Assembly (NCBI GenBank): GCA_963778815.1
Contig: CAVZVS010000005.1
Span: 30,653-94,652, forward strand
Direction: 5' to 3'
DNA: 64,000 bases
Source of the DNA: an uncultured Chloroflexia bacterium
Lineage (GTDB): Bacteria; Chloroflexota; Limnocylindria; Limnocylindrales; CSP1-4
The number at the start of each line of letters is the position of its first letter. The first letter of the stretch is position 1. Shown in pieces: positions 11,212 to 44,285 of the stretch. The notes beneath the pieces are model-generated. The model was not told where the DNA came from. It searched no databases and saw only the letters and a program-made list of their open reading frames with translations. The position numbers and the translations under genes were made by a program.

Positions 11212-11422
11212 TATGACCACCATGAATAGGAACCCGGCCAGCTACCCGCCTGGACGTCTGATCAGGTCGGATCCGTCGCCCTGACGGCTGGGATATGACC
11301 ACCATTGCCAGGAAGCTGGCTGGCGGCTCCGATCCAGGTCGGATCGCAACGTCGCGTGCCTTAGGCGGCACTGGCTGGCCCGGGATCGTCGTTTCGGATG
11401 CAGGCTAGCAATGGCCGTTCTA
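11212..11422. repeat. Intergenic triplet of 17-bp pseudo-palindromic motif (copy A)
   Basis: 11212-11228 TATGACCACCATGAATA; 11294-11310 TATGACCACCATTGCCA; 11406-11422 reverse complement TAGAACGGCCATTGCTA. Confidence 0.6.
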
Positions 11423-11529
11423 GCGCGCCGGCCGGGACCCCCGCGCAACGCGGGATCAGCAGCACGGGCACCCTCGCCCGGCGCGGAGCGCGGGCACCCT
11501 CGTCGCGCAGCGTGGACTGCCAACGGCCG

Positions 11530-12015
11530 TCAGCCGGGCAGCGCGACCTCGATCCGACCGTCGGCGATGCGGACCGGGTAGTAGCGGAAGCGGCGGACGC
11601 GGGTCAGGCGTCGCGCCTCGGCCTTCTTGCCCGGCGGGTCCTCCTTGGGATCGCCGCCGGCCGGTGACCAGGTCGGGTGGTAGCGCCCGTCAGGGTCGAG
11701 GCCGCCGGTCGTCGGCATCTGGACCGGCTCGCCGGTGGCCAGGTCGAACCGCCCGTTGTGGAGTGGACAGGCCACGACGCAGCCGTCGAGCTCGCCGATC
11801 GACAACGGTGCCGACATGTGCGGGCAGCGGTCGTCGACGGCCATGATCCCGTCAGGCGTATGGGCCAGCAGGAGGTCGAGATCGCCGCGGCTGACCCGGC
11901 GCATCGCACCTGGCGGCAGCTCGGCAAGGTCGAGGACCGGCTCGAACGCTTCGGCCTCCCGGCCCGTGCCGAGCGCCTGGAGCTGAGCGGGGAAGGCGGC
12001 CGGTCGGGGTTCCAT
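11530..12015 (-). CDS. Rieske [2Fe-2S] ferredoxin with internal insertion
   Basis: CPHMSAPL and VACPLHNGRFDLATG; C-terminal YPVRI. Confidence 0.88.
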   Translation of the reverse strand: MEPRPAAFPAQLQALGTGREAEAFEPVLDLAELPPGAMRRVSRGDLDLLLAHTPDGIMAVDDRCPHMSAPLSIGELDGCVVACPLHNGRFDLATGEPVQMPTTGGLDPDGRYHPTWSPAGGDPKEDPPGKKAEARRLTRVRRFRYYPVRIADGRIEVALPG

Positions 12016-12035
12016 CAGTCGAATGCTACCTGCCC

Positions 12036-12076
12036 AAGACGAACGACGGCCCCGGTGGGATCCACCGGGGCCGTCG
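12036..12076 (-). terminator. Intrinsic terminator after MFS gene
   Basis: Perfect 15-bp stem 12044-12058/12062-12076, 3-nt loop, followed on minus strand by TTCGTCTT. Confidence 0.7.
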
Positions 12077-12097
12077 AACGAGGAGGAGGAGCGAAGG

Positions 12098-13831
12098 TCA
12101 GTCGCCGATCGCCGTGCTGGCCGAGACCGGATCGGCCTTGCCCGACGAGACAGCCGCCTCGGCCATCGCCGCGGACGGGACCGGCGCCGTGTTGGAGGTG
12201 CGTAGCGGGATCTCCTTGATCGCGATCGCGGCGATCAACGCGAGCACCGAACCGACCACGCCCAGCCAGAATGACTGGGCCGTCGCGAGGCTGAAGGCCC
12301 CGTGGATGCCCTGGACCATGGCATCGATGAACGGCGTGACCGCGGCCTGGAACTGGGCGGGGATGGCGGCCAAGAGCGCCGCGCCCTGGTCACCGACGCC
12401 GGTCAGGGCACTGAAATCGAACGAGCCGCTGCTGCTCGCCTGGGTGAACCCGTCAACGACCGGTTGGGGGACGCCGGCGGCGCTCATCTGCGGGATGAGG
12501 TGGTCCTGGAACGAGGTCGCGAAGATCGTACCCACGAATGCGAGCGCGATCGTCCCGCCGATCTGGCGGAAGAAGGTCAGGTTCGACGTGGCCACGCCGA
12601 GCTCCTTGAACGGGACCGCGTTCTGGATGACGATCGTGGGCACAGAGAACGTCGTTCCGACGCCCAGGCCGGCGATGAACATCCACAGCCACACGACCGG
12701 CACCGGTGTGTCCTTGGTGAGTTGGGTCATGAGCAGGACCCCAAGGCCCATCACGGCGACGGATCCGACGATCAGCCACTTGTACTTGCCGGTCCTCGAC
12801 ACGATCAGGCCGGACACGATCGAACTGCCGATGAGACCGATCATGAGCGGCAGCAGGGCAAGACCGGAGTTGGTCGGCGAGAAGCCCTCGACCACCTGGA
12901 ACCAGCGGGGCAGGAAGACGATCGCGCCGAAGAAGGCGAAGGCGGCGAAGAAGACCGAGACCATGGTGGCCGAGTAGGTCCGGCTCTTCCACAGGTCGAG
13001 CGGGACGATCGGCTCCTTGGCGCGCGACTCGGCCAGGATGAACAGCAAGGTCCCGATGAGGCCGACGATGATGAACCCGCCGACCGTCGCCCCGGCCCAG
13101 TCGCCGAACTGCTTGTTGGTCAAGCCGACCAGCAGGAAGACCATCGAGACCGTGAAGATCGCCCCGCCGATCAAGTCGAAGTTCCGCTCTGCCGAGGGTG
13201 TCTTGACCGTCGGCAGCAAGCGCTGGATGACGATCAGAGCGACGATCCCGATCGGGATGTTGACGTAGAAGATCGCGTGCCAGCCGATGTTCTCGGTCAG
13301 CCAACCGCCGATGAGCGGGCCGGCGACGAAGGCGATCCCGAAGACCGCCCCGAAGAGGCCCTGGTACTTGCCCCGCTCCTGAGGAGTGAACAGGTCGCCG
13401 ATGATCGCGAGCGCCACCGGGAACAGCGCGCCGGCGCCGATGCCCTGGATGCCCCGGAAGAGGATCAGCATCGCCATGTTCTGGCTGAGGCCGGACAGCG
13501 CCGAGCCGATCAGGAAGATCACGATGCCGAGCATGTAGATCGGCTTGCGTCCGTAGAGGTCGGACAGCTTGCCCCAGAACGGCACGCTGATCGTGCTGGT
13601 CAGCAGGTAGATTGTGATGGCCCAGACGTAGTAGTCGTTGCCACTCAGCTGGGTGACGATGGTCGGCAGGGCCGGCCCGACGATGGTCTGGTCGAGGGCG
13701 CCGAGGAACAGCCCCAGCATGACCGCGAAGAGGATCTCCATCTTCGCGCGGTGGGAGAGCCCGAGGGCTGGGTCTTCTTGGAGGGACGGTGCGAAGCCCC
13801 TTCCGTCGTCGGCGAATCCGCCTTCCATCAT
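12098..13831 (-). CDS. MFS multidrug efflux transporter, DHA2 (EmrB/QacA) family
   Basis: ALDQTIV..ALP, GKLSDLYGRK, RGIQGIGAG, W..IFYVNIPIG; 14 TM. Confidence 0.92.
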   Translation of the reverse strand: MMEGGFADDGRGFAPSLQEDPALGLSHRAKMEILFAVMLGLFLGALDQTIVGPALPTIVTQLSGNDYYVWAITIYLLTSTISVPFWGKLSDLYGRKPIYMLGIVIFLIGSALSGLSQNMAMLILFRGIQGIGAGALFPVALAIIGDLFTPQERGKYQGLFGAVFGIAFVAGPLIGGWLTENIGWHAIFYVNIPIGIVALIVIQRLLPTVKTPSAERNFDLIGGAIFTVSMVFLLVGLTNKQFGDWAGATVGGFIIVGLIGTLLFILAESRAKEPIVPLDLWKSRTYSATMVSVFFAAFAFFGAIVFLPRWFQVVEGFSPTNSGLALLPLMIGLIGSSIVSGLIVSRTGKYKWLIVGSVAVMGLGVLLMTQLTKDTPVPVVWLWMFIAGLGVGTTFSVPTIVIQNAVPFKELGVATSNLTFFRQIGGTIALAFVGTIFATSFQDHLIPQMSAAGVPQPVVDGFTQASSSGSFDFSALTGVGDQGAALLAAIPAQFQAAVTPFIDAMVQGIHGAFSLATAQSFWLGVVGSVLALIAAIAIKEIPLRTSNTAPVPSAAMAEAAVSSGKADPVSASTAIGD

Positions 13832-14382
13832 GGCCTGCTGCTCTCCCTTCCCTGAGTCCCAACGGACTCTTCATGGCGTAGGTGCTCGTGGTAGATCCCG
13901 AATCGGTCGGGGTGTTCGATCTCCTCGGCCCGGACGGCCGCCCGGAAATCGATGAGGGCCAGGTGGAGCCGATCCAGCCGTTCGTCGTCGAGTCGCTCGA
14001 GGACGGCGGTCATCAGGTCGCGCTTCATGATCTGGATCTCGTCGAGAAGGTCCGTCCCGACCTGGGTCAGTCGGACGAGCACGACTCGACGGTCCTCTCG
14101 GTCGCGGATCCGTTCGATCAGACCGCGCTCCTCCATCCGGTCGACCAGCCCCGTGGCGTTGGACAGCGACACGTCCAGGAAGTCCGCCAGTCGGCTCATC
14201 GCCAACTCGCCCGACTCTTCGAGGCGCCACATGACGTGGACTTGCGTCATGCTGACGCCCTGCTTCACCATCCGGCCGGTAGCCGCACAGCGGAGCAGGC
14301 GGACCGAGCCGTTGAGCTCGTCGGTGATCCCCTCAAGGGTATCGCGACGAGTCGTCGAAGCGGTCGAAGAAGTTCGTGTCAC
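13828..14382 (-). CDS. MarR family transcriptional regulator
   Basis: LADFLDVSLSNATGLVDRMEERGLIER..D..DRRVV.V.LT; TATGAT 7 nt before GTG 14382 (track start 14394). Confidence 0.9.
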   Translation of the reverse strand: MTRTSSTASTTRRDTLEGITDELNGSVRLLRCAATGRMVKQGVSMTQVHVMWRLEESGELAMSRLADFLDVSLSNATGLVDRMEERGLIERIRDREDRRVVLVRLTQVGTDLLDEIQIMKRDLMTAVLERLDDERLDRLHLALIDFRAAVRAEEIEHPDRFGIYHEHLRHEESVGTQGRESSRP

Positions 14383-14470
14383 GTGAACTATCATACTGAT
14401 GCGGATAATCCTGTCAAACGAGACTATTCAGGTGGTCGGGTCGATCGGGAGCCCGCCCGAACGGAGGATC

Positions 14471-15415
14471 GTGCGTTACGTCCTGATGATCGAGGCCCAG
14501 CAGGGCTTGACCTACGAGGATCAGCTCGCCGTGGCGCTCCATGCCGAGGCGGCCGGCTTCGAGGCCCTCTTCCGGTCGGATCACTACGAGAGCTTCCCCG
14601 GCCCGGCCGGTCGTCCGACGACGGATGCCTGGACCGTCTTGGCCGGCCTGGCCCGAGAGACGCGGACGATCCGACTCGGCGTCCTCGTCTCGCCGGTCAC
14701 CTTCCGACCGCCCGGGACGATGGCCAAGATCGCCGCGACCGTGGACCACATGAGCGGTGGCCGGGTGGAGCTCGGCCTCGGAGCCGGCTGGAACCTCGAT
14801 GAGCATCGTCGTCACGGCGTGCCGTTCCCGCCGATCGCCGAGCGGGCCGACATGCTCGAGGAGCAGCTGGCCATCGTGGCCGGCCTGTGGGGTCCGGACG
14901 GCTGGTCCTTCGCCGGTGAGCACTACCAGGTCGAGGACACGATCTTCCAGCCCAAACCGGTCCAGCAGCCGCGCCCGCCGATCATCGTCGGGGGCGAGGG
15001 ATCGCCGCGATCGCTGCGGATCGCCGCCAAGCATGCCGACGAGTTCAACCTGACCGCCTCAGACCCCGCCCGCGCTGCCGACCGCTACGCCAAGCTGGCC
15101 GATGCCTGCCGGACCATCGGCCGCGATCCGGCCACGATCCGACGTTCGGCGATGGTCGGGACCCTGATGGGTCGCGACGCGACCGAGCTCGCCGCCCGGA
15201 AGCAGGCACTCCTGGCGGAGTTCACCCACGATGAGCAGGGCGATGAGTGGTTCGCGACCCGCGAACAGCGCTGGATCTTCGGGACGCCCGACCAGGTCCG
15301 AGCCAGGGTCGCGGAGTTCGCGGCTGCCGGCGTGGAGCGACTGGTGCTCCAGGACTTCCTGCCTCGCGACCTCGACATGATCGACCAGCTCGGCGAGGTG
15401 CTGGTCCGGGCCTAG
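14471..15415 (+). CDS. LLM-class (probably F420-dependent) oxidoreductase
   Basis: FRSDHY, DAWT.LAGLARET.TIRLG.LVSP.TFR.PG, D.MSGGR.ELGLGAGW; GGAGG before GTG 14471. Confidence 0.9.
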   Translation: MRYVLMIEAQQGLTYEDQLAVALHAEAAGFEALFRSDHYESFPGPAGRPTTDAWTVLAGLARETRTIRLGVLVSPVTFRPPGTMAKIAATVDHMSGGRVELGLGAGWNLDEHRRHGVPFPPIAERADMLEEQLAIVAGLWGPDGWSFAGEHYQVEDTIFQPKPVQQPRPPIIVGGEGSPRSLRIAAKHADEFNLTASDPARAADRYAKLADACRTIGRDPATIRRSAMVGTLMGRDATELAARKQALLAEFTHDEQGDEWFATREQRWIFGTPDQVRARVAEFAAAGVERLVLQDFLPRDLDMIDQLGEVLVRA

Positions 15416-15422
15416 CGGTGCC

Positions 15423-15477
15423 GGCTCAGCCCTCGGCCACGGCTCAGCCCTCGGCCACGGGCTCAACCCTCGGCGCG
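15423..15477. repeat. Three near-tandem 18-bp copies GGCTCAGCCCTCGGCCAC
   Basis: 15423-15440, 15441-15458 and a diverged copy 15460-15477 containing the SIS gene stop. Confidence 0.8.
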
Positions 15478-16662
15478 GGCGGCGGCTGCCGCGTAGATCG
15501 GGTCGGTCCGGCGGATCGGGTCCGGGTTGGTCCCGACGACCCGGGCCAGCCGCTCGACGATCAGCTGGAGCGGGGTCGCACTGCCCAGGACCGAGGCGAC
15601 CGGCGCGGGCAGGCCGCTCGCCTCCGGAACGACGATCCGGCCCATCGGAGTGAGCGACGGATCCAGGAGAGCGGCGATGTCGGCGGACAGGATCGCCCCG
15701 ACCCGGATGCCGATCTCGCCGGCCGCTTCGAGCGCCTGGCGCGCTCGTCCGACCCGCTCAGCTCGGGCCCGACGATCGGTCAGGATGAGGATCAGGCCGG
15801 TCGTCCGGTCGGTCGACGGCAGGTGACCGTGGAGGAACGTTTCGAGGTTCCGTGAAGCGGCCGGGATCCAGGTCCCCTCCTCGAACTTGAGGACCATCTC
15901 GCGGGCCGCCGTCCGGTCGGCGCCCGACCCGATGGTCAGGATCGGTCGGCAGACCCCGAGCCCGTCGGCGATGGCTTCCGCCGCGACGGTCGCCTCGCGG
16001 TCGATACCCGCCGCCATCAACCGGCGAATGACTGCCGGGTCGATCGGCTCGCCGCTCAGGATCGCTCCGACGACCGCGCCGGCCAGCAGGGGAGAGGTGT
16101 AGCCGATCGTGTGGCAGTAACTCTGGTCCCGCTCGAGGGTCTCGACCACGATGTCGATGCCCTGTGCTCCGGGTGCCTGGCCGCTGACGGTGATGATCGC
16201 GGTCCGGGCGCCGACAGCGCGGGCAGCGTCGATCGCCTGCGTCGTAGCGGCGGTGGCCCCATCGTGGCTGATCCCGATGCATAGCCCGCCACGGGGCTCG
16301 AGCGAGGCCTCGAATGCCTGGATGGCTGTCGGACCGTGGCCGGGCAGGCCTGCTCGGGCCCAGGCGTCGCGCAGGATCTCGGCCACACCGAGAGCCCCGT
16401 GCTCGCTGGTGCCGCAACCGAGCACGCTGACCGGCGCTCCGGCCGCTGCGGCCTCGCGCAGGGCGGTCGCCAGGCGGGTCGCGCCTCCGTTCGGTCCCTC
16501 GTCGACCAGGCGCGTGATCAGGCGCTCGGCGAACGCCGGTTCAGCCTCGATCATCTCGGTCATGAACCAGGGTGGAGCCCCGCGGTCGACCGGCCGCTCG
16601 GCCCAGTGCCACGGATCGGGTGGGCCGGGGAGCGGCTGCTCGGGATCGAACGCTTCAGGCAT
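15463..16662 (-). CDS. SIS-domain sugar-phosphate isomerase/deaminase-like protein (GlmS/AgaS-like)
   Basis: EMIEAEP, LGCGTSEH, GISHDG.T, SYCHT.GY, K.EEG.W; start placed at ATG 16662 behind TATCAT. Confidence 0.8.
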   Translation of the reverse strand: MPEAFDPEQPLPGPPDPWHWAERPVDRGAPPWFMTEMIEAEPAFAERLITRLVDEGPNGGATRLATALREAAAAGAPVSVLGCGTSEHGALGVAEILRDAWARAGLPGHGPTAIQAFEASLEPRGGLCIGISHDGATAATTQAIDAARAVGARTAIITVSGQAPGAQGIDIVVETLERDQSYCHTIGYTSPLLAGAVVGAILSGEPIDPAVIRRLMAAGIDREATVAAEAIADGLGVCRPILTIGSGADRTAAREMVLKFEEGTWIPAASRNLETFLHGHLPSTDRTTGLILILTDRRARAERVGRARQALEAAGEIGIRVGAILSADIAALLDPSLTPMGRIVVPEASGLPAPVASVLGSATPLQLIVERLARVVGTNPDPIRRTDPIYAAAAARAEG

Positions 16663-16817
16663 CACCCGATGATAGGCGGGTCGCGGCGTGGCCCGAGCTG
16701 CGGTCCGTCCAGCGCGACGTGGTGGCGGTCGGTGCGACGAGGTTGGTCGGTGCGGGCCGCGCATCGGCGACCTGCCCGCCCGCAAGGTGCGATCGTGGAT
16801 CGCGCCGACACATCCCG

Positions 16818-16985
16818 TATCACTGCCATTGTTAGCCAAGGCCCTACGAGCCTGGATCTCCAATTCCGACGACCTCGATGGCCTCGCGTATCCATCAGCC
16901 TGATATTCGGGGCCATAGGAGGCTCAGAACTGGGAGTCGAGGGTGACGAGCACGGTTGAACCGACTCCTAACAGTGCCTCTGATA
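16818..16985. repeat. Intergenic triplet of 17-bp pseudo-palindromic motif (copy C)
   Basis: 16818-16834 TATCACTGCCATTGTTA; 16889-16905 TATCCATCAGCCTGATA; 16969-16985 TAACAGTGCCTCTGATA. Confidence 0.6.
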
Positions 16986-17033
16986 TTCCGCCTCTGGGAG
17001 CGGCCGGCTGCGCGTCACGCCGCCTCGGTCTGC

Positions 17034-17510
17034 TCAGCGCTCGAGACGACCGATGCGCCCGGCGGGACCGTAGCGGAACCAGGCGCGGGCGAGCAACCGA
17101 TCCAGCCCGACCGGCCCGTAGTCCCGCGAGTCGTGGGACGCCGCCCGGTCGTCACCGAGCAGCCAGGCCTGGGTCGGGTCGAGGCGGATCGGTCCGTCGT
17201 GGGTCCGGATCACATCACCGGGCCGGGCGGCGACGCGCTTGATCGCCAGCAGCTCGCTGTCCGGCTCCCGGACGACCACGATCGTGCCCCGCCGCGGCCA
17301 CTCGCGGACCGTCGGGTCGGTCAGCAGCCAGTCGCCCGGTTCGAGCGCCGGGTTCATCGACTCCTCGACCACGGCGACCCGCCACGGCCCATCCCGGACA
17401 TCGCCGACAAGCCGCCCGGCCATGTCGGATCCGGGCACCTGCCCGGCGACACCGGGGATCCGTCCCACGACACCGGGTAGCAGGCCCGCGACGCGGCGGA
17501 CGGCGCCCAC
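17034..17510 (-). CDS. sodX: Nickel SOD maturation protease (S26 family)
   Basis: ESM.PAL.PGDWLL, IKRV, WLLGDD...S.DSRDYGPV; directly downstream of sodN; start uncertain. Confidence 0.85.
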   Translation of the reverse strand: MGAVRRVAGLLPGVVGRIPGVAGQVPGSDMAGRLVGDVRDGPWRVAVVEESMNPALEPGDWLLTDPTVREWPRRGTIVVVREPDSELLAIKRVAARPGDVIRTHDGPIRLDPTQAWLLGDDRAASHDSRDYGPVGLDRLLARAWFRYGPAGRIGRLER

Positions 17511-17523
17511 GCCCGACGGACGC

Positions 17524-17943
17524 TTACTTCTTGGTCGACCAGAAGATGTCGGAGAACTCCTTGACCGCGACCTCCAGCTGGGCGGCGGCCTCGGCGTCGA
17601 TGTTCTGCTTGTTCTTGCCGGCCAGCTTGAGCAGGTTCCAGACCTTGGTGTGGAGGTCCGGGTTGGCCTCGAGATGCTCAGGCTTGAAGTAGTCGGACCA
17701 GATGACCTGGACCTCGCGCTTGACGATCTCAGCGTGCTCTTCCTTGACCGTGACGCAGCGGATGAACTTGTTGCGATCGGCCAGGGCGGTCGAACCGGCG
17801 TCGATCCCGCCGATCAGCTCGACCATCCGGGCGACGGTCCGGGCAGCCTGGGTGGCGCCGGCCGGGTCGTAGATCCCGCAGGGGATGTCGCAGTGGGCGC
17901 GGACGACGGTCTTGGGCGCGAGCCAGCCAGTGAGTCGGGACAT
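17524..17943 (-). CDS. sodN: Nickel superoxide dismutase precursor
   Basis: Ni-hook AHCDIPCGIYDP after short propeptide; KEEHA..VK, IWSDYFKP; RBS GAGGTG. Confidence 0.96.
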   Translation of the reverse strand: MSRLTGWLAPKTVVRAHCDIPCGIYDPAGATQAARTVARMVELIGGIDAGSTALADRNKFIRCVTVKEEHAEIVKREVQVIWSDYFKPEHLEANPDLHTKVWNLLKLAGKNKQNIDAEAAAQLEVAVKEFSDIFWSTKK

Positions 17944-18118
17944 GGGACACCTCGGGCAGTGGTGGTTCCGAACGGTCGCCAAAGTGTCCAAGTCCCAGCC
18001 CGGGGTGTCAAACGAGCGGCGGGGCGAAGCTGGTACCGACGTCGCGAGTCGCAAGAGCGTGCTCGTCTGGGCCGATGAGGACGTCGATCGCGGTCAGATC
18101 GTCATCCGATGGGTCACG

Positions 18119-19003
18119 TTAGAAGACGGTGTTCCAGTCGTTCTTCATGCTGACGACCGTCCAGCCCAGCTTCTTGGCCTTGGCCAGCGAGGCCTCGCCA
18201 CCATTGGTATAGGCGAACTCGCGGTGCGCATCGTCATGGTTCACGAGTACGGAGAACCGGGCAGCTTCGAGCATCTCGATATCGACGTCGGCGTTCCCGC
18301 CGGCGAACACCGGGAGTCGGCCGGTCTGAGCGAAGATGTGCTCTGGCTTACCCGGACCGATGTCGACCCCACCGAGCACGTGCTCACCCCGGATGATCCG
18401 CCCATCGGTGTAGCTGTACTCGGCAGCGGTCCCGATCACGTTCTCCTTGTAGATGCCCCATGTCTCCTCGGCGAAGACGCGCATGAAGTCGCGCCCGCCA
18501 CCGGAGCACACGAACACCCGGAACTGCTCTGCCTTGAGGTACTCCAGGAGCTCGAGCATGGGCTTGTACACGAGTTCGATGTACAAGGCGCCAAGCTTCG
18601 GCTGCTTCACGGTGGTGAGCCACACCCGGACCTGGGCGTCGAACTCGTCGGGCGTCGTCCCCTGCCAGGAACGGGAGAAGGCCGCCAGCAGCGCGCCGAC
18701 GGCCTCCGGCTCCTGGGTCGCGATGGCCCCGAAGAAGGCCGGATCCCTGGTCAGGATGGCCTTGTACGGTTGCTGCTCGGCCAGGGATGGGTCCGCCCTC
18801 ACTTCGTCGGCCCACTTGCGGAAGACGAAGTCGAACTGGGGCGGTAGCGGCTGCTCGACCCACAACGTGCCGTCGTTGTCGAACGTCGCGATCCGGTCCG
18901 CGACTCCGACGAAGTCAGGTCCAGGCGCCGTCGCCCGGGAGATGAAGTCGACGATGGCTCGTTTCGCCGGTCCGTCGTTCCAACTCTGAAGTCGGTCAGC
19001 CAT
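18119..19003 (-). CDS. HAD-superfamily hydrolase (sulfatase-associated type)
   Basis: ATFDNDGTLWVEQP, Y.PM.ELL.YL, CSGGGRDFMR, GGNAD.DIEML. Confidence 0.88.
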   Translation of the reverse strand: MADRLQSWNDGPAKRAIVDFISRATAPGPDFVGVADRIATFDNDGTLWVEQPLPPQFDFVFRKWADEVRADPSLAEQQPYKAILTRDPAFFGAIATQEPEAVGALLAAFSRSWQGTTPDEFDAQVRVWLTTVKQPKLGALYIELVYKPMLELLEYLKAEQFRVFVCSGGGRDFMRVFAEETWGIYKENVIGTAAEYSYTDGRIIRGEHVLGGVDIGPGKPEHIFAQTGRLPVFAGGNADVDIEMLEAARFSVLVNHDDAHREFAYTNGGEASLAKAKKLGWTVVSMKNDWNTVF

Positions 19004-19094
19004 GAGGAACGGACGCCTCCATCTTCACAGGGTCTCGGGTCAGGCCCATCGTATCCGCCCCTCAGTCGTGCGGCTGACGATCGACCCGTCCCCG

Positions 19095-21452: not shown

Positions 21453-21509
21453 CGCGTCATCCCTTTGTCGTTGCTGGGGGCTGGGGACAACGAAGGTAGC
21501 ACCGGGCGG

Positions 21510-21944: not shown

Positions 21945-22038
21945 GCGCAGCTCCCTGATAGGCGGCTCGGACGGGAAGTGTACAGAGTGAGTGCGGTACG
22001 CTCCGGCGGTCCTTTCGGCTAGGAGGTGACTGGCTCAG

Positions 22039-31761: not shown

Positions 31762-31767
31762 CTGACG

Positions 31768-33992: not shown

Positions 33993-34058
33993 GCCGGCGC
34001 GCAGCGACCCCGGCTCCGGTGCGGACCGGGGCGGGGTCGCCGCTCGGGAGGGCGCTGG

Positions 34059-34709
34059 TCAGAGGCTGGGCTGGGCAGCCTCGTCCGGTCGGCCGAGACG
34101 GATCAGGAAGCGCAGGAAGATCGCCCCCGAGGTCAACGCCACCAGGGCCAGGCTCAGGTTGAGGATCGGCCAGGCGAGTACGTTGACGGTCTGCTCGTCG
34201 GGGTTCGCCGCGATCAACGCGCCAGGGAGTCCGCCGAGCCCGTAGACCGTCAGGCGATCGACCTGATCGGCAGCCTCGAGCCCGTAGATCTGGGGAACGA
34301 TGTAGAGGGCCGAGGCGATGACAAGGAGGCCGCTCACCAGGCGGAATGCTCCAGGATCGTCGTCGGCGTCCCGAAGGAGCTTGACGCACATCGCCCACAG
34401 CAGGACCACCACGGCGAGCGGGGCGGTCAGGGGCAGGCCAAGCCCGATGTAGAGGTTCGGCATCAGGAACACGAGGCTCAACCCGAGGACGATCACCAGC
34501 AGCGCGTCGCGCAAGAGCACGTACGACAGCCACCAGACGTCACCGCCGAAGCGGAGCGTCAGGGATTGGAGGAACCGGACGATGTACGGTCGGGCGAAGT
34601 GGAGGATCAAGGCGAACGACCACAGGATCGGCAGGACGGCTGCCACCGACAGGACAAGCCAGCCCTGACCGCCGGTGGTGATCGCAGTGGCGAGATCGTC
34701 GGCACTCAT
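34059..34709 (-). CDS. Uncharacterised multi-TM protein, paralog B
   Basis: About 6 TM; ARPY..TLRFGGDVWW.SY..LRD; ATGA overlap with paralog A. Confidence 0.8.
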   Translation of the reverse strand: MSADDLATAITTGGQGWLVLSVAAVLPILWSFALILHFARPYIVRFLQSLTLRFGGDVWWLSYVLLRDALLVIVLGLSLVFLMPNLYIGLGLPLTAPLAVVVLLWAMCVKLLRDADDDPGAFRLVSGLLVIASALYIVPQIYGLEAADQVDRLTVYGLGGLPGALIAANPDEQTVNVLAWPILNLSLALVALTSGAIFLRFLIRLGRPDEAAQPSL

Positions 34710-35320
34710 CGGGTCTTCTCCTTGCTCGGGCGGCTGCTGGCCTGCCTGAAGTTGTAGGCGACGGCGACCAGGGCCATGATCCCGACCAGGGCCCCGGAGA
34801 AGTAGCACAGTCCGAGCGCGACATCCACGTTCTGGCTGGACACCAGCACCGAGGCGAGCTGGTTCGACTGATCCGTTCCGATGGTCGTGACCTGCACGCC
34901 GAGCAGGTAGGGAAGGATGTAGAGGGTGGCGCCGAGCCCCAGGAGCGCGACCTGGGCCCGGAACCAGTTCACCTCATGGTCGCCCTTGATGAGCTTGATC
35001 AGCATCACCGCGAAGGCGCAAGCGGCGGCCAGCCCGCCGGTGATCGGCAGATCCTTGCCGCTCACGACGTCGGGGTAAAAGAAGATGAAGCTGCCGAGGA
35101 AGAGGTTGACGAGGAGCAGGTCGCGCAGGGCGATGTAGATGATCCACCACAGGTCGGCGCCCAGGCGCAGGGTGAACTTGTTGAGGTTCGCGACCATGTA
35201 TGGGCGGGCGATGTACAGCGACACGACGAGGACCCAGAGCACGACGAGGACCGCCGCGATCGTCCCCTCGATGAAGCTCTCGCCTGCGTCGAACAAGCCT
35301 GACACCTGGTCGGGGGTCAT
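34706..35320 (-). CDS. Uncharacterised multi-TM protein, paralog A
   Basis: About 6 TM; ARPY..TLRLGADLWW..Y..LRD; ATGA overlap with flavoprotein gene. Confidence 0.8.
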   Translation of the reverse strand: MTPDQVSGLFDAGESFIEGTIAAVLVVLWVLVVSLYIARPYMVANLNKFTLRLGADLWWIIYIALRDLLLVNLFLGSFIFFYPDVVSGKDLPITGGLAAACAFAVMLIKLIKGDHEVNWFRAQVALLGLGATLYILPYLLGVQVTTIGTDQSNQLASVLVSSQNVDVALGLCYFSGALVGIMALVAVAYNFRQASSRPSKEKTR

Positions 35321-37314: not shown

Positions 37315-37458
37315 GGTTGGCTCCGTTGCGAGTTGTCTCGGATAGCGTCCGGCCAGGGGCGTCGTCCGACCAGACACAGCCGAGCAGGGAGGGCGATGTC
37401 CGATCGGGTGGGGGAGTGGTGCCGGATGGCCCGGGCCGAACAGCCGGACGGACGCCGA

Positions 37459-38121
37459 TCAGGTCGGGCCGACAGGATCGCTCGGTGGGATCAGGCCCTC
37501 GCGGACCGCTCGTGCGGCGACCTCGGTCCGGGACTCCGCATGGAGCTTCTCGAGGATGTTCCGGAGGTGGTACTTGGCGGTGTTCTCGCTGATCCCCAGC
37601 CGGACGGCGATCTCCTTGTTGCGGAGGCCGGCTGTTACCAGACGGAGGACCTCGATCTCGCGATCGGTCAGGGCATCCGGCCCGGCCGAACGGTCGGGCG
37701 GTCGATCGCGACGGAGGAACTCCTCGATGATCCGGGCTGCGGTGGCCGGTGCGATGGCGGCCTCGCCCCGGCCCACGGCGTCGATCATCGCCCGGAATTG
37801 GACCCCTTCGAGGTTCTTGAGCAGGTAGCCGTTGGCGCCGGCTTTGATCGCCGCGAACAGGTCGTCCTCATCCTCGCTGACGGTCAGGATGACGATGGCC
37901 GTCTCGGGTCGATCGGCCTTGATCCGGGCGGTGGCGTCGAGGCCCGATCCACCGGGCATCCGGATGTCCATCAGGACCAGGTCCGGAGCGAGGCGCTTCG
38001 ATTGCTCGACCGCGTCGGGCCCGCTCGACGCGAGACCGACGATGTCGTGGCCCCAGACGTCGAGGAGCGAGGCCACCCCGTCGCGAAACAGGGCGTGATC
38101 GTCGGCCAGCAGGATCCTCAT
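37459..38121 (-). CDS. NarL/LuxR family response regulator
   Basis: ILLADDH, LMDIRMPG, LT.RE.EVL, NKEIA..L.ISE.T.K.H..NIL.KL. Confidence 0.93.
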   Translation of the reverse strand: MRILLADDHALFRDGVASLLDVWGHDIVGLASSGPDAVEQSKRLAPDLVLMDIRMPGGSGLDATARIKADRPETAIVILTVSEDEDDLFAAIKAGANGYLLKNLEGVQFRAMIDAVGRGEAAIAPATAARIIEEFLRRDRPPDRSAGPDALTDREIEVLRLVTAGLRNKEIAVRLGISENTAKYHLRNILEKLHAESRTEVAARAVREGLIPPSDPVGPT

Positions 38122-39467
38122 CGCGACGCGAGTCCTGGGAGCGCAAGGGTCTCGTCCGTTGGCACCGTCAACCGGACGAGGGTGCCGTGGTCGCCGACGC
38201 GTTGCCATTCGACACTGCCGCCGGCCGCGGCGGCCCGTTCGCGCATACCGACCAGGCCCAGGTGTGGCCAATCGCTCCCGACCTCGTGCGCGACGGCCGG
38301 ATCGAACCCGCGGCCATCGTCCTCGATCTCCACGTCGACGTGGGCGTCGGTCCGGATGATCCGGACGATCACTCGGTGAGCCTTGCTGTGCTTGCGGACG
38401 TTCGTCAGGGCCTCCCTGACACTCCTGAACAGGTCGTCCTCGACCTCGGGCTGAAGGGCGATCGCGGCGATCGGATCGGACTCGACTTGGACGGCCAGCT
38501 TGGACGCCTCGGCGAATCGTCGGGCGTAGTCGCGGATCGCGGCGACCAGCCCACCGGATGGTTCGACCGGGCTGCTGAGACCGAGGATCGCTTCGCGGAC
38601 ATCGACGTAGATGGAGCGGGCGGCGAGCGCAAGCTCGTCGATCTGGGCACGGGCCTCGGTGACCCGACCCGCGTCGAGCAGCTCGGTCGCCGCCTGCGAC
38701 TTCGTGTTCACGTAACCGAGCACCTGGGCCAGACCGTCGTGCAGCTCGCGGGCGATCCGCTCGCGTTCCCCGCGGACCGCCATGGCGCGCAGCTCGCGCT
38801 GGAGCCGGTCGTTCTCGATCGCTACGGCGACCTGGTCTCCCAGGGCCTGCAGCGTCTCGAGGTCCACCTCGCCCAGCGGTCGCGCGGTCGAATCGCCAAC
38901 GACCAGCGTCCCGATCGTCTGGTCACCGCGACGGACGGGCACGCCGACGGTCGCCCGAACCCGGTCTGATCGAACGAACGCTCCGGCATCTGCCAGGGCA
39001 CCCTTCGCGTCCACCCCGGGTCGGGCGACTACGTCGACGACGCCCGGAGCGAACAGGTCGTCGGAACCACTTCGGGCAACGAGCTGGGTCAGCCCGTTGG
39101 CATCGATGGTCAGGATGAAGGCCAGGTCCGCCCGGAGCAGATCTCGGGCGGTCTCGACCACCAGGCGCAGGATCCGGTCGAGGTCGGCCAGGGTGGAGAT
39201 CGCGACACTCGACTCCTGCAGGGCGCGCAGGGAGGCGTCGCGGGCCTCGAGCTCCTGATTTCGAGCCAGGAGGTCGGCACTCAGACGGTCGATCCGACGA
39301 AAGGCGATCGACGAGAAGGCCGCCGCCAAGATCCCGACGACGACCATCACCAGCAGGGTGTCGAGCGGGAACGGCAGGAACGGATCGAGCAATGTGTCGC
39401 TGAGCAGTTCGATGCTGCCGACCAGGGCCACCGGCAGGACGATGGTCAGCCAGCGCAGTCGGATCAT
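38118..39467 (-). CDS. GAF-domain sensor histidine kinase (HisKA_3, NarX/NarQ-like)
   Basis: 2 N-terminal TM; GAF; ERERIARELHDGLAQ; EALTNVRKH, DDGRGF, GL.GMRERA. Confidence 0.92.
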   Translation of the reverse strand: MIRLRWLTIVLPVALVGSIELLSDTLLDPFLPFPLDTLLVMVVVGILAAAFSSIAFRRIDRLSADLLARNQELEARDASLRALQESSVAISTLADLDRILRLVVETARDLLRADLAFILTIDANGLTQLVARSGSDDLFAPGVVDVVARPGVDAKGALADAGAFVRSDRVRATVGVPVRRGDQTIGTLVVGDSTARPLGEVDLETLQALGDQVAVAIENDRLQRELRAMAVRGERERIARELHDGLAQVLGYVNTKSQAATELLDAGRVTEARAQIDELALAARSIYVDVREAILGLSSPVEPSGGLVAAIRDYARRFAEASKLAVQVESDPIAAIALQPEVEDDLFRSVREALTNVRKHSKAHRVIVRIIRTDAHVDVEIEDDGRGFDPAVAHEVGSDWPHLGLVGMRERAAAAGGSVEWQRVGDHGTLVRLTVPTDETLALPGLASR

Positions 39468-42400
39468 CCCGGGACGATGCCTCCCTTATCATCGGCGATC
39501 GCCGCCACCAGCTTCTCGACCTGGTATCCCGCCGCTCCCGCCAGGCCGATCAGACGGTCAACGGTGATCGCCGACGGGACAGCCTCGATCGGCTCGGACC
39601 GCGTCGGCGTGATCGTCGGCGCCATCGGGGCGGCCAGCGGCGCGACCGTCTCGACCAGCCGCTCGAACGCGTCGCGATCGAACCAGGTCGCTCCGTCGGC
39701 TTCGTGGACACCCAAGGCACGAGCCAGGTCCGGGTCGGTGAACCAGAGGACGACCGTCGGACCGTCGAGTGCGCGCAGGTCGGGCTCGGCCAGGACGAGC
39801 CCCCGTACGATGGCGGTCCCGCGCTCCGCCGCCGCCGGCTCCAGCCCGGTCTCGACCAGGGCGTCGCGGACAGGCACGTCGAGTCGGTCCGCAGCGAAGA
39901 CGTCGCGGTCGCTGTCAAGGGCTTCGACCGCGGCGGCAAGGACGGCGCCGGGCCGACCTGGCTTCAGTTTCAGCGCCGCGAACGCAGCCGCGAGCCTCGC
40001 CCGAGCGCTCGCGTGGACCGGGCGCAGGACGATCCAGTGGAGCGCCTCGTCGATCGACGGCAGCCAGCCTTCGCCCAGCTCGACGGCCAGGGTCGAGATC
40101 GGTCGGTCGGGTTCGTCGCCCATCTCTTCGAGGTCGACCAGGACCCGGCAGGCGTAGGCCGACAGCCCGACGTGGAGACCGCCGCGGACCAGCCCCGCCG
40201 ACCAGCGCAGCGTCTCGAGCCCGCTCATCGCATCGCGCAGGCGCAGCCAACGATCCTCGCGCCCCGAGGCGCCCAGACCGGCCGCAAGGGACTCGCGCTG
40301 GAGCCGACGCTCGCCGTCCGCCCCGCGACCGTTGAACGCGGTCGACTCGCGGATCCAGCCGTCGGCATCGGCGTAGGCGTTGTGATAGACCACCAGCGAT
40401 CGACCCCCGCCGGGGCCGACGTTCGAATAGGCGAAGACGTCCTCGTTGACCGAACCGTCGCTGGACACCAGGTCGTACAGCCGGAAGGCGTCGGACCCGG
40501 CGAAGTCGGCCCGGCGATGGAGGAGCGGGAAGATCGTCCGGCCGTGATGGTCGAGCAGGCCCTGGTCGACGGTCTCGTCGCGCTTGGCCCGACGGTATTC
40601 CATGCCGTACTTCTCAGTGAAGCCCTCGACCTGGCCGTGGCCGAACATGGGCAGCCCGGGCAGGGTCGCCATCATCGCCGCGACCCCGAAGTACTTGCCG
40701 CCCGACCCGAACTGGTCGACCGCGGTCCGCTCGTCCGGGTTGCTCATGAAATTGACGAACCGGCCGAGGATGGCCGGGTCGAATTCGAGGGTGTTCTTGA
40801 TGACCTGGCGGTACTCCGCGTTGAGCTCGTCGCGGAGCATGTTCATGAAGGCGCTGTTGTAGACCCGGTGCATCCCGAGGGTCCGCACGAAGTAGCCCTC
40901 GAGCATCCAGAAGGCCTCGGCCAGGAGGAGCGTCCCGGGGACCTCGACGGCGACCCGGTCGACGACCTCGCGCCAGAACTCGCGGGGCATCGCCCGGTCG
41001 AACTCCTGGCGGGTCAGCCCATGACCGGCCCGGCTGGGAATCGCCCCGCCGTGGCCCGGCTCCGGGAACCACAACCGTTGGACGTGCTTGCGGGCGAGGA
41101 CCATCGCGGCGTCGAAGCGGATGACCGGAAACTGCCGGGCGACCTCGAGGATGGTCTGGATGACGGCCTCGCGGACGGCCGCCTTGGAGTAGTCCAGCTG
41201 GGCCGTGTCGTTCCAGGGGAAGCTCGTCCCGTCGTTACCGTGGTACACGAAGCGCTCGTCGCCGGTCTGCCGGTCGAAGCGCTTGAACACCACCGCCGCG
41301 TCGGTCGAGTCGTAGTAGTGGTCCTCGAGGACGATCCCGACCCGCTCGTCGGACGACAGGTCCGGCCCGTTGAAGGTATAGCCGGGAACGGACTGTAGGG
41401 CAAGGACAGGAAGCGATCGGGTTGGTCGATGACCCAGCGCGAATCGATGCCCATGTGGTTGGGGACCATGTCACTGGCCAGGCGGATGCCCCGGGCGCCG
41501 GCCCGGTCACGCAGGTCGGCCAGGGCCCCGGGTCCGCCAAGGTCGGCGGCGATCCGGTAGTCGTCGAGGGAGTAGGCGGACGCGACTGCCTCCGGGTCCC
41601 CGCGCAGACGCTTGATCCGCTCGGACGCCGTCGAGCGCTCCCACAGCCCGATCAGCCACAGGCCGGTGATGCCCCGGATGGCGAGCGTGTCCAGCTCTTC
41701 GTCGGGGACGCCGTCGAGGGTCCGGATATCGCGTTCGTAGCGGCGCGAGAGCTGATCCAGCCAGACATACGTGCTCTTGGCGATAAGGACCAGGCGCGGC
41801 ATCCAGTCGCGGTCCTGGCTGAACCGCTCTTCCTCGCCGAGCTCGTACTGGTAGACCTCCGATGGGCCGCCGGCCCCGTGATCATGGGCCGAGAACCAGG
41901 CCCGGTCGGCTGCCTGGCGCTCCTCGGACAGGACGTCCAGCGCGACCAGGAGCTTGTCCAGCAGGTCGTCGATGGCGCCGTCGAACTTGCCCGCCCAGTT
42001 GGTCCGGATCCAGCGCAGCTGATCGGCCAGCGAACCCGGCGCCGCGGCGGCCGGCTGACGGAGAAGCTCGACCAGCGAACGACCTTCCGGCCCGAAGCCG
42101 GGCCGACCGCCGAAGAAGCCTTCGAGCGCGTCGGCCACGGCTCCCAGCGCCTGGCCCTCGCGGACGGCGCGCAGGTCGACCAGCTCGCGGAACGGGTCGA
42201 CCGCGGCGTTCTCGTCGAGACTGGCCAGCAGCAGGAGCTGGGCCACGGCCGTCGGTGGGTCGGCGGTCTCGGGCACGGTCAGGCGAGCCGGGAACTCGGT
42301 GCTGAAGGCACTGACCGCAGCGCTCAGCGGTGCGTTGCCCAACCGGTCGCGCAGCCAGGCATCGGCCGCGACCAGGGCCGTCGGGTCGGCTTCGGCCCGG

Positions 42401-42684
42401 TAGCGATCGACCAGGCGGCCGAGGATGGTCACCAGCAGACCGGCCGCGTGGAGTTGGCCGGCGGTCAGCGGGTCGTCGCTGACGCGCGCGGCGTCATCGC
42501 CGGCGGTCGTCGGCTCGCTCGCCCGCCCCGGGTCGCGCGAGGGCGACCGTCCTGCGTTGACCCGGGCGGCGATCGTCCGAGCCGTCGCCAGGTCCGCGGC
42601 GAGGGTCAGATCGGCCAGCCGGTAGCGGGTCCGGGCCGGTCGAGCCAGCCGGAAGTCCTCAGCGGTGGACCGGCCGCCGGCCAC
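39464..42684 (-). pseudogene. Large GH13 alpha-amylase-family protein (about 1073 aa if repaired), split by one-base deletion near 41384-41386
   Basis: DMVPNH, RFDAA, AEAFW, NPDE catalytic-region motifs are spread over ORFs 41014-42795 and 39464-41293; adding one base to the G run gives SPFPGYTFNGPDLS; may be a sequencing error. Confidence 0.85.
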
Positions 42685-42686
42685 GC

Positions 42687-43673
42687 TCAGCCCGGAGTGC
42701 CGGATCCGGCGCCGACCGGGGCTCGATCGGCGGCGGCGTGATCGATCGCTCGACGAAGCAGTTCGAAGCCGGACGGATCGAATTCGTAGAGCCACTCACG
42801 GACGCGCTCCGGCCGGCTGAACCGATCGGCCAGACCGAGGGCGAGCGCTTCGCGCGAGAGCAGGATGATGTCGGCGGCCGCATCGACCTTGGCGATCGAG
42901 ACGTCATCGTCGATGGTCGCGGAGACGAGGGTCACTCCGCTCGTGCCGGAGATGCGCAGGGTCTCGGCGATGTTGTCGGTCCCGGTCGCCGAGGCGCAGA
43001 CCAGGCCGACCTTCGCTCCCGGCGGCAACTCCGCCACCTCGTGGACCAGATCCATGTAGCCGGGACCGACGATCATCGCCACGACCGGGACGCGACCGGC
43101 GGCGTAGGCCTGGGCCTCGTCGGCGTGGAAGGTCGTGGTCGCGATGAGGTCGTAGTGGAAACGGTCGAGACGTTCCGTGATGTCCTCGAGGAGGGTGCCC
43201 TCGGCCTCGATCGTGCCCGGGAAAGCCTCGGCGATCCGATCCGCGTCGTAGCAGCTGTCGGCCTTGGTGCACTCGGCGAAGAGGACCCGGACGAGCGGGC
43301 CCGGGCGCTTGCGCTCGGCGGCAGCCGCGAACGTGGCCGAAGCCACCTCATCGGCGGTGAACCCGGCCACGGCTCCGCGCCGGAGCATCTCGGCCACGAT
43401 CCCGGCCAGCGCCTCGGCCCCGCGCCGCTGCGGCGGCCGATCCGCGACGTGGGTCCCGGCCCCGTGCCGACTGGTCACGTAGCCGGCGTCGGCCAGGCGC
43501 TTGTAGACCGCTCGGATGGTGTTCGGATTGACCCGCAAGGCGGCACCGAGCTCGCGGACCGGGGCGAGCCGAGCGCCTGACAAAAGCCGCCCGGAATCGA
43601 TCTGGTAGGCGATCTGCCAGTAGATCTGGGTCGAGATCGGGACGTCCGAAATCACGCTCGACGTCGAGGTCAT
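42687..43673 (-). CDS. GntR (YtrA-like HTH) regulator with long C-terminal alpha/beta domain
   Basis: PISTQI..QI...I.SG.L..G.RL.PVRELG..L.VN.NT....Y..L...G; C-terminal FAEC and TTTFH motifs. Confidence 0.88.
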   Translation of the reverse strand: MTSTSSVISDVPISTQIYWQIAYQIDSGRLLSGARLAPVRELGAALRVNPNTIRAVYKRLADAGYVTSRHGAGTHVADRPPQRRGAEALAGIVAEMLRRGAVAGFTADEVASATFAAAAERKRPGPLVRVLFAECTKADSCYDADRIAEAFPGTIEAEGTLLEDITERLDRFHYDLIATTTFHADEAQAYAAGRVPVVAMIVGPGYMDLVHEVAELPPGAKVGLVCASATGTDNIAETLRISGTSGVTLVSATIDDDVSIAKVDAAADIILLSREALALGLADRFSRPERVREWLYEFDPSGFELLRRAIDHAAADRAPVGAGSGTPG

Positions 43674-43739
43674 CGGTGACCCGGGGATTCGGCCCTGGGG
43701 GTGTGCTCGATCGGTCCTGGGATGTGACGTCTGGATTAC

Positions 43740-43768
43740 TTGACATAGTCTGATAGTCCAACTAGTAT
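43740..43768 (+). promoter_or_regulatory. Sigma70-type promoter TTGACA-17-TAGTAT
   Basis: TTGACA 43740-43745, TAGTAT 43763-43768, upstream of small ORF at 43808. Confidence 0.7.
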
Positions 43769-43781
43769 CTTGGCCTAGTCC
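43746..43781. promoter_or_regulatory. Putative GntR operator
   Basis: Inverted repeat TAGTCCAA-N8-TTGGCCTA 43754-43777 and TAGTC[CT] at 43746, 43754, 43776, in AT-rich DNA between divergent genes. Confidence 0.5.
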
Positions 43782-43807
43782 ACTATAACAAGCAGCGGAG
43801 TTTCGTC

Positions 43808-43948
43808 ATGGCGATCCTGATCCTCGCCATCCCGGTGGCCATCGTCGCACTTCTTGGCATCGCCGCGCTCCGCTGGGGTGTCGACTCGCGCCATGGGTCC
43901 AGCGACGCCCGTGCGCCCCTCGAGCCAGTCGGCATCTGGGTCCGCTAG
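43808..43948 (+). CDS. 46-aa single-TM small protein (MAILILAIPVAIVALLGIAALRWGVDSRHGSSDARAPLEPVGIWVR), below ORF-track cutoff
   Basis: GGAG RBS at 43797-43800, promoter upstream, terminator downstream, hydrophobic helix then WGVDSR. Confidence 0.7.
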   Translation: MAILILAIPVAIVALLGIAALRWGVDSRHGSSDARAPLEPVGIWVR

Positions 43949-44009
43949 ACCGCCCGCCGGCCGGCCCTCAGCGGCCCACCGGCCAACGACTCCCCGATCG
44001 ACTTCACCC

Positions 44010-44056
44010 AAGGGCAGACGTGTCGCGCGCAGGCGGCACCTCTGCCCTTTCTTCGT
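44010..44056 (+). terminator. Intrinsic terminator after small ORF
   Basis: AAGGGCAGA 44010-44018 pairs with TCTGCCCTT 44041-44049, inner stem GTGTCGC/GCGGCAC, then TCTTC. Confidence 0.55.
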
Positions 44057-44116
44057 GTCTGCTTCCTTCGTGCCCGCGGATCAGCGCGACCATGGCCGCG
44101 GATCCGCGCCGCCAGA

Positions 44117-44285
44117 TATCACTCCCACTGCTACGAGACGGGTAGATCGGGTGTCAGGCTCGAGCCTCGGGCCTAAAGACCGATTCTGCGGTGCGTTCTA
44201 TCGATGGAGGTGATATCTGAGGCCACTGCAGGGCAGATCTAGCGCTCAGGCGGGTCCAGGCCATTCCGTAACGATGGTGGTGATA
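44117..44285. repeat. Intergenic triplet of 17-bp pseudo-palindromic motif (copy B)
   Basis: 44117-44133 TATCACTCCCACTGCTA; 44199-44215 TATCGATGGAGGTGATA; 44269-44285 TAACGATGGTGGTGATA. Confidence 0.65.

Follow-up and report, generated by a model that had tools for sequence, protein, structure and literature searches.

This report concerns a family of short intergenic elements, here called cassettes, in the genome of an uncultured Chloroflexia bacterium. Three of them lie in the 64,000-nucleotide stretch of DNA that we analysed (the window; contig C5:30653-94652 of genome G000, which is 2.28 Mb long, 70% G+C and 66% complete, and which the names of homologous proteins assign to Candidatus Limnocylindrales, Chloroflexota), and each carries three oriented 17-bp sites, or operators. 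We argue that the window clusters are probably solo copies of a three-operator array that also stands at the gene of an XRE-family protein with a nuclease-like C-terminal domain, and that this protein would bind them; from the comparison of sequences, we put the probability of this reading at roughly 0.6. The argument draws on five observations, namely the architecture of the cassettes, the phasing of their sites, their link to one gene, the co-variation of that gene with the operator family, and the patchy phyletic distribution of the whole. Throughout, G000 denotes the window's own genome and all other G-numbers denote the genomes compared with it, which are incomplete metagenome-assembled genomes, so that the absence of a gene from any of them is soft evidence.

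Architecture and phasing of the cassettes

A sequence-only reading of the window had listed nine 17-bp sites in three long non-coding gaps, and in all three regions the sequence reads exactly as it was given there. We searched the window for the consensus TATCACNNCCATTGNTA, allowing at most three mismatches, and compared the outcome with 100 shuffles of the window. Nine matches were found, where 0.62 are expected, and none of the 100 shuffles reaches nine. Eight of these matches are sites of the sequence-only reading, whose ninth site (B2 in Table 1; C5:47541) is more degenerate and yet passes the cut-off of at least 18 bits when a position weight matrix (PWM) is used instead. The remaining consensus match, CCTCGCCACCATTGGTA at 18193-18209 (+), lies isolated inside coding sequence, where it overlaps long open frames; with three mismatches and less than 12 bits in the PWM scan, it is most likely due to chance. 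Scanned over the whole of G000, the matrix gives 22 matches at this cut-off, 21 of which group into eight clusters, each in a non-coding gap: three in the window and five on contig C4 (at 107198, 323189, 425727, 467399 and 998906). That is, the genome-wide scan that had been proposed along with the nine sites finds its matches clustered and intergenic, and not at background frequency.

A logo built from 59 sites places the conserved unit in a core of 18-19 bp, (g)ATATCACnnnCATTGnTA, and the positions flanking this core carry almost no information. The core is a pseudo-dyad, TAnCA-N7-TGnTA, but a clearly asymmetric one, and therefore each site has a direction. A cassette is about 170 bp long, contains no gene, and consists of three such sites: the outer two 18-mers are inverted with respect to each other, with their ATATCAC ends outward, and the middle operator may point either way. 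For the statistics of this geometry we used 104 clusters from 15 genomes. Among adjacent sites of opposite orientation, the arrangement +/- occurs in 62 cases and -/+ in one. The centres of adjacent sites are 70-73 bp apart in 26 cases and 80-83 bp apart in 39, and the only other adjacent distances below 130 bp are 61, 62, 92, 93, 103 and 114 bp, all of them in phase. The centre spacing thus follows a rule of about 71.5 + n x 10.5 bp, in steps of one helical turn, and steps of this size place all three sites on one face of the helix. The commonest distance between the outer centres is 153-157 bp. Within the window, both the spacings and the arrangement of one site facing two opposite ones had been described correctly by the sequence-only reading (Table 1).

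The DNA between the sites had been called non-conserved, and it is: cassette interiors are unrelated both within and between genomes, and an all-against-all blastn comparison of 24 cassettes aligns only the sites themselves, over 15-25 bp, with the exception of one 92%-identical tandem pair in G018. A miniature inverted-repeat transposable element (MITE) with a conserved interior was rejected on this comparison. A structured RNA was likewise rejected. Whole cassettes do fold better than shuffles on both strands (z of about -2.7), but the interiors alone fold no better than shuffles (z of -0.27), and thus the folding signal comes from the outer inverted pair only. A known non-coding RNA family had been named as something that the gaps might match, and no match to Rfam 15 was found, for the window at the gathering threshold or for the cassettes at E<=1. 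No terminator was found within the cassettes. Conservation is thus of three oriented sites together with their helical phase, which fits a protein that binds double-stranded DNA.

A separate observation concerns the flanks. Of 23 cassettes, 14 have GC-rich tandem repeats no further than about 110 bp from their outer edge; these repeats differ in sequence, with periods of 8-45 bp and 2-16 copies. For comparison, such repeats are found in 18% of the 300-1200-bp non-coding gaps of G000 and at 7% of random positions. Whatever process acts at the cassettes may have produced them as a side effect.

The partner gene, its protein and the operator families

A scan of the genomes' contigs with the HTH_3 profile (HTH, helix-turn-helix) finds, in each of G000, G001, G018 and G015, an XRE gene directly beside exactly one cassette. 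The context is constant in these four genomes: glnA, the cassette, the XRE gene and an MFS transporter follow one another. The gene is present in 15 of 19 congeners, and all 15 have a three-site array upstream of it, whose last operator lies over the start codon (...GTGATATGG). Across the class, 88 of 151 genomes have between one and ten paralogues, and many of the distant ones show the same geometry with other operator sequences, that is, a last site over the ATG and its inverted partner 147-217 bp upstream. The sequence-only reading had seen in the clusters an element with several sites for HTH dimers of the Cro/CI type, which might loop the DNA, and this view is strengthened by the presence of the same array at an XRE gene, by the helical-turn spacing, and by an operator family that tracks the gene.

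Apart from the XRE gene, what adjoins the eight cassettes of G000 is a mixture of housekeeping genes with no relation to one another, often in convergent order (LOG/Rieske, SIS/signal peptidase, GntR/GH57, S58 peptidase, PntB/TrkA, aldehyde dehydrogenase, S41 peptidase/lysine aminomutase). The possibility that a partner gene stands beside most cassettes was rejected, as clustering of the open reading frames (ORFs) flanking 30 loci in G018 and G012 gave no recurrent neighbour. Two ORFs adjoining cassettes D and F of G000 were also rejected as partners; they encode membrane or low-complexity proteins.

Upstream of the XRE genes we found no sigma-70 consensus promoter and no Shine-Dalgarno sequence, and the mRNA may therefore have little or no leader. 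About 30-40 nt before the ATG of the XRE gene, between operators 2 and 3, stands a short G[A/G]TAAG/CGTAAC-like motif, which recurs in distant paralogues and may be a promoter element.

The partner protein is about 270 aa long and has an XRE-family (Cro/CI-type) HTH at approximately residues 25-90, which matches HTH_31 and HTH_3. Its sequence matches in the PDB are to XRE antitoxins and repressors only, and the C-terminal 170 residues match no profile in Pfam, NCBIfam, PADLOC or the PDB. The family is small, comprising 373 clusters at E<=1e-3 among 1.84 billion representative proteins; in these clusters the C-terminal domain nearly always begins at about residue 95 of a protein of 250-275 aa. 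The AlphaFold (AF2) model of the full protein has a predicted local distance difference test score (pLDDT) of 85, and that of the C-terminal domain a pLDDT of 85 and a predicted template modelling (TM) score of 0.82. The modelled core of the domain runs alpha-beta-beta-beta-alpha-beta, and its Foldseek matches, which are mostly PD-(D/E)xK nucleases, take in the R2 endonuclease domain, XisH, R.BspD6I, McrC, MunI, FokI, LmuA, SduA and cap-snatching endonucleases. Judging by this model, the domain is probably a restriction-endonuclease-like PD-(D/E)xK fold. The invariant residues, many of them charged, include E102, H103, D138, E153, D160, K171, R205, T207, R209 and N210; D138 falls on strand 2 and E153 on strand 3 of the model, and any nuclease activity of the protein is putative.

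The operator family and the gene vary together. The ATATCAC pattern occurs in 17 of 18 congeners, with 1-33 matches per genome against 0-1 for the reversed control pattern. In the sister family, whose genomes are of 1.1 Mb, the pattern is near the control level (0-4 matches versus 0-2), the gene is absent from the six genomes searched, and no cassettes were found in the twelve scanned; G011, within the genus, has neither the partner gene nor any cassette. Four congeners (G002, G003, G004 and G007) have a different operator, ATATCGAnnCCAnCAGTA, upstream of the partner gene, and in these genomes there are 6-11 dispersed matches of the ATATCGAnnCCAnCAGTA family, with inverted pairs about 150-190 bp apart, and 1-3 matches of the ATATCAC family. 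Most ATATCAC-type genomes have the two families in the reverse proportion. In a genome of another genus, G118, the operator TCAAGAAGGCGTATC stands at the gene and recurs as two solo inverted pairs, with 147-158 bp between the members of a pair. On these counts the operator family of the solo arrays goes with that of the resident gene, a co-variation that is partly confounded by shared ancestry.

In several genomes, cassettes of two operator families (ATATCAC/ATATCGA; TAGAACGG in G000) stand side by side in one intergenic gap, which suggests either shared insertion hot spots or a conserved double array.

The window cassettes and their turnover

A gap of 424 bp holds cassette A, with a LOG-family gene (10308-11105, +) on one side and a Rieske gene (11530-12015, -) on the other. 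In the direction of transcription, cassette B follows a signal-peptidase gene (17034-17510, -) and precedes a SIS-domain gene, and cassette C is directly downstream of a GH57 amylase gene (44326-46515, -), facing the terminator of a small-ORF unit. The sequence-only reading had placed two clusters between convergent genes, and this is correct for A; for C it holds only if the small ORF at 43740-44056 is real. Cassette B is not in a convergent gap, both of its neighbours being on the minus strand.

The flanking genes of all three cassettes are conserved in all 18-19 congeners, and each cassette is present in just two or three. Position A (downstream of the Rieske gene) and position B (downstream of the signal-peptidase gene) are occupied in G000, G015 and G016 only, in the case of B with the same orientation and offset, and position C (downstream of GH57) is occupied in G000 and G006 only, of 19 congeners. 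In a three-protein tree G000 groups with G001, G011, G015, G006 and G016 (support 0.99). Given these clade-limited positions and the grouping in the tree, the cassettes look like clade-specific gains followed by losses. In the orthologous cassettes of G015 and G016 the operators are better kept than the spacers, and the close pair G003/G004 has all its cassettes in common. A search for empty sites in relatives, which the sequence-only reading had suggested, bore fruit in part: cassette-free positions were found, but a clean 172-bp empty site or a target-site duplication was not seen, in an exact comparison that is limited by congeners too divergent and by indels larger than the cassette. Comparative evidence of this kind points to a cassette turnover that is real but slow, and active transposition would be conjecture.

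Table 1. Positions of the cassettes, their operators and associated features. Locations without a contig or locus name are window coordinates.
Feature	Location	Strand	Details
Cassette A, solo three-operator	11211..11423	.	pattern +,+,-; centre spacings 82 + 112 bp
Operator A1, TATGACCACCATGAATA	11212..11228	+	3 mismatches; 23.5 bits
Operator A2, TATGACCACCATTGCCA	11294..11310	+	consensus match; 22.2 bits
Operator A3, TAGAACGGCCATTGCTA	11406..11422	-	consensus and PWM match; TAGAACGG variant
Cassette B, solo three-operator	16817..16986	.	pattern +,-,-; centre spacings 71 + 80 bp
Operator B1, TATCACTGCCATTGTTA	16818..16834	+	0 mismatches, near-palindromic; 27.7 bits
Operator B2, TATCAGGCTGATGGATA	16889..16905	-	degenerate middle site; 18.5 bits
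Operator B3, TATCAGAGGCACTGTTA	16969..16985	-	consensus match; 20.3 bits
Cassette C, solo three-operator	44116..44286	.	pattern +,-,-; centre spacings 82 + 70 bp
Operator C1, TATCACTCCCACTGCTA	44117..44133	+	consensus match; 23.2 bits
Operator C2, TATCACCTCCATCGATA	44199..44215	-	consensus match; 25.0 bits
Operator C3, TATCACCACCATCGTTA	44269..44285	-	consensus match; 26.2 bits
Gene-linked cassette of G000	C4:998905-999087		outside the window; last operator overlaps ATG
G[A/G]TAAG/CGTAAC-like motif	e.g. L004:5043-5052; loci L036-L068, L089-L101		in gene-linked cassettes
Paired-family gaps	G005 C1:195634-196121; G014 C6:436209-436672; G017 C10:57134-57597; G013 C1:226737-227146; G002 C135:39267-39678; G000 C4:323188-323598		cassettes of two operator families
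GC-rich tandem repeats	L036:1865-2215 (G018); G000 C4:323118-323178, C4:107073-107111, C4:998765-998836		also in many G018/G012 cassette flanks

The TAGAACGG variant of operator A3 is found again in G000 at C4:323428, 323581 and 467399, and is common in G006, G015 and G016. Cassette A has a further peculiarity, in that a C-to-G change from TATCAC to TATGAC creates ATG-led frames of 24 and 38 codons (11214-11288 and 11296-11412, +), which start inside operators A1 and A2; such frames were not seen in other cassettes, and they are probably meaningless. Beside cassette C lies a hairpin terminator, aagggcagaggtgccgcctgcgcgcgacacgtctgccctt (44020-44056), which belongs to the small-ORF unit at 43740-44056 and is kept at the orthologous gap in G002, G006 and G011.

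Competing explanations and known systems

How the cassettes would work can be put as follows. A dimer of the XRE-family protein would occupy each 17-bp operator, and the C-terminal domains would join the dimers, such that about 150 bp of DNA would be wrapped or looped. At the partner gene, the three-operator complex would result in autorepression. Solo cassettes would spread only rarely, by duplication, possibly helped by the nuclease-like domain, and after such spread the operators and their phasing would be kept while the spacers drift. Binding, oligomerisation, catalysis and the mode of spread are all things that we infer. A bolder version would have the HTH-nuclease assemble on the three phased sites, wrap the 150 bp or so like a small nucleosome, and maintain or spread gene-less copies of its own operator array around the chromosome; it would be a new class of partnership between repeat and protein, a functional analogue of REPIN-RAYT with an unrelated enzyme and another mode of recognition, that of double-stranded operators, and the GC-rich tandem duplications beside the cassettes would be its scars. 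We offer this version tentatively, and find it rather doubtful.

Several findings weigh against the reading of the window clusters as solo copies of the partner's array. The partner gene of G000 itself (C4:999087-999830; L004:5087-5829) is divided among three frames (frame 2 for aa 1-179, frame 3 for about 185-202, frame 1 for 211-250). Either the gene is a pseudogene or the assembly has two indel errors here, and the window sites may be orphaned unless the assembly is at fault. The orthologues in G005 and G002 are likewise split. Sites also occur where the gene does not: G016 (77% complete) has 17 sites and no partner gene was found in it, and G015 has an HTH stub only, yet 19 sites. In G005, G013, G014 and G017 both operator families are present, and no second cognate gene was identified. 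A simple code from recognition helix to operator was considered and rejected, in that the 'SQAR' helix of G000 is like that of ATATCGA genomes, yet its operators are of the ATATCAC type. As for the nuclease-like domain, its Foldseek matches are all weak (E>=0.017, TM 0.3-0.36), and the canonical ExK lysine is replaced by a tryptophan, W155. No sigma-70 consensus promoter was found within the cassettes. Finally, at their empty sites G011 and G006 are about 350-400 bp shorter, which is not the clean 172-bp unit, no target-site duplications or direct repeats flank the cassettes, and no recently copied pair of cassettes was found.

The effect of a protein binding to such arrays need not be selfish. 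The cassettes may be domesticated chromosome-structuring sites, in which protein-wrapped arrays act as topological or transcriptional barriers between genes and are kept for the benefit of the host. Helical-turn spacing steps and an outer distance of about 153 bp are compatible with DNA wrapping, and 3' and convergent gaps are preferred; the conserved operators and drifting spacers of the G015/G016 orthologous cassettes, as well as the cassettes shared throughout by G003 and G004, also favour this account. However, the gene is broken or missing in G000, G002, G005, G015, G016 and G011, the positions turn over between species, and some 8-12 arrays per genome are few for a structuring role. We regard structuring sites as improbable. 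Quite unlikely, in our judgement, is an ordinary regulon, in which an XRE transcription factor controls the gene beside each cassette. In its favour, the sites match the operators through which an XRE gene would regulate itself, and by polarity three of the six G000 solo cassettes (B, D and F) face the 5' end of a neighbouring gene. But on either side of A, C, E and cluster H the genes converge, with their 3' ends towards the cassette, the neighbouring genes are without a common function, and the positions of A, B and C are not conserved despite their conserved flanking genes. The full phased array of three sites is kept everywhere, moreover, and a simple operator would not need it.

Two further accounts have to be weighed. 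The cassettes might be remnants of a mobile unit of cassette and gene, which duplicates as a whole and leaves a solo cassette when the gene is deleted. Elsewhere in the class there are indeed many paralogues per genome (up to 10), each with its own array, and gene decay is seen in this genus. Against this, each genome of the genus has a single copy of the gene, always at one syntenic place, versus 8-12 solo cassettes; the gaps around A and C leave no room for the relic of a gene; the ends of solo cassettes read ATATc or ATATt, not ATATG; and no pseudogene fragments flank the cassettes. We hold this origin to be very unlikely. Poorer still are the prospects of a decayed MITE or repetitive extragenic palindrome (REP) family, or of a folded non-coding RNA, in either case with no connection to the XRE gene. 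Terminal inverted 18-mers, an intergenic location, several copies and the folding of whole cassettes would suit such an origin, and the sequence-only reading had allowed for a decayed REP/MITE family. In the strict sense, that possibility finds no support: the interiors are unrelated and fold no better than shuffles, the sites occur in both orientations, and we found neither an Rfam match nor a hairpin REP of the GTAG type, nor a transposase or a target-site duplication. That 15 genomes tie the array to the XRE gene also speaks against it. A resolvase res site has three subsites, each for a dimer, and adjoins the gene of a serine or tyrosine recombinase; no recombinase was found beside any of the eight G000 cassettes or the gene-linked cassette. 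Returning to solo copies of the partner's array, they may be selfish and owe their spread to the nuclease-like domain, or they may be useful to the host, as barriers or decoys.

The sequence-only reading could name no described element that matches, and the same holds here: full-text searches found no literature description of this pairing of repeat and protein, and Rfam gave no match. The REP/REPIN elements and their RAYT (TnpA_REP) proteins are short intergenic inverted repeats with a single vertically inherited cognate gene (PMC3116915, PMC8049555). Like them, the cassettes are inverted intergenic pairs, often at 3' ends, with one cognate gene that itself adjoins the repeat; from lineage to lineage, gene and repeat family change together, and G011 and the sister family lack both. 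In our case there is one syntenic gene per genome with its cassette upstream only, and G016 and G015 keep sites without an intact gene. The partner differs in kind, being an XRE HTH joined to a PD-(D/E)xK-like domain rather than a Y1/HUH transposase (Pfam, NCBIfam and PADLOC show only the XRE-type HTH). The repeats differ as well: a REP unit is an imperfect palindrome of 20-40 nt with a GTAG/CGTC head, whereas the 18-mer has no GTAG head and no stable hairpin, and the cassettes have three phased sites, unconserved spacers, and neither near-identical copies nor bursts of copy number. By analogy, a REP/RAYT-like genomic logic of solo repeats and one cognate gene does seem to apply to the cassettes.

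In DNA recognition the nearest comparison is with phages. The lambdoid operators OR1-3 and OL1-3 are tripartite sets of 17-bp sites, 3-7 bp apart, bound by CI and Cro, with looping by CI octamers. The cassettes share with them 17-bp pseudo-palindromes with a TATCAC half-site, three sites per array and an adjoining Cro/CI-type HTH gene, and the expected logic is the same, namely autoregulation of the repressor gene with cooperative binding or looping. They differ in that their spacers are 54-65 bp (centres 71/82 bp apart), the outer sites are strictly inverted and solo copies are dispersed; the neighbours are glnA and MFS rather than phage genes, and the C-terminal domain is nuclease-like, not of CI type. 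Controller proteins of restriction-modification systems and their C-boxes are also similar, in that an XRE HTH, repeated operators upstream of its own gene and a restriction-type nuclease fold are involved, and fold matches of the partner protein include C.AhdI, C.Esp1396I and C.BclI. Here, however, HTH and nuclease-like domain form one polypeptide, with no methyltransferase or separate endonuclease nearby, and C-boxes are about 35 bp long and not dispersed, as against cassettes of 170 bp.

The Correia elements of Neisseria and the BIMEs of E. coli are intergenic, have inverted ends and sometimes organise protein binding (IHF, gyrase). Cassettes resemble such MITEs in their size class of 100-200 bp, intergenic location and terminal inverted repeats, a role taken by the outer 18-mers. 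What marks those families, namely conserved interiors, duplication of the target (TA for Correia) and a large number of nearly identical copies, was not seen in the cassettes. Type IIS enzymes such as FokI offer a parallel for the protein alone, with an HTH-type reader fused to a PD-(D/E)xK cleavage domain that needs oligomerisation. In the present case there is no cognate methylase, dozens of genomic sites exist, the ExK lysine is a tryptophan, and any catalysis is putative. Thus the closest published analogue is REPIN/RAYT in genomic logic and the tripartite lambdoid operator in DNA recognition, and membership of either fails on defining features.

To our knowledge, few intergenic repeats of bacteria have a known cognate protein, and REP/RAYT is the main example. 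For annotation, the cassettes serve as a warning: such AT-rich islands should be taken neither for promoters of the genes beside them nor for genes of RNAs. The dispersed, phased three-operator array and its lineage-restricted HTH/nuclease-like protein would constitute a second, unrelated pairing of repeat and protein that can be read from sequence alone. Such a system opens to testing the dispersal of operator arrays, the keeping of helical phasing while spacers drift, and the role of an orphan protein family whose hosts are abundant but uncultured Chloroflexota of soil and fresh water.

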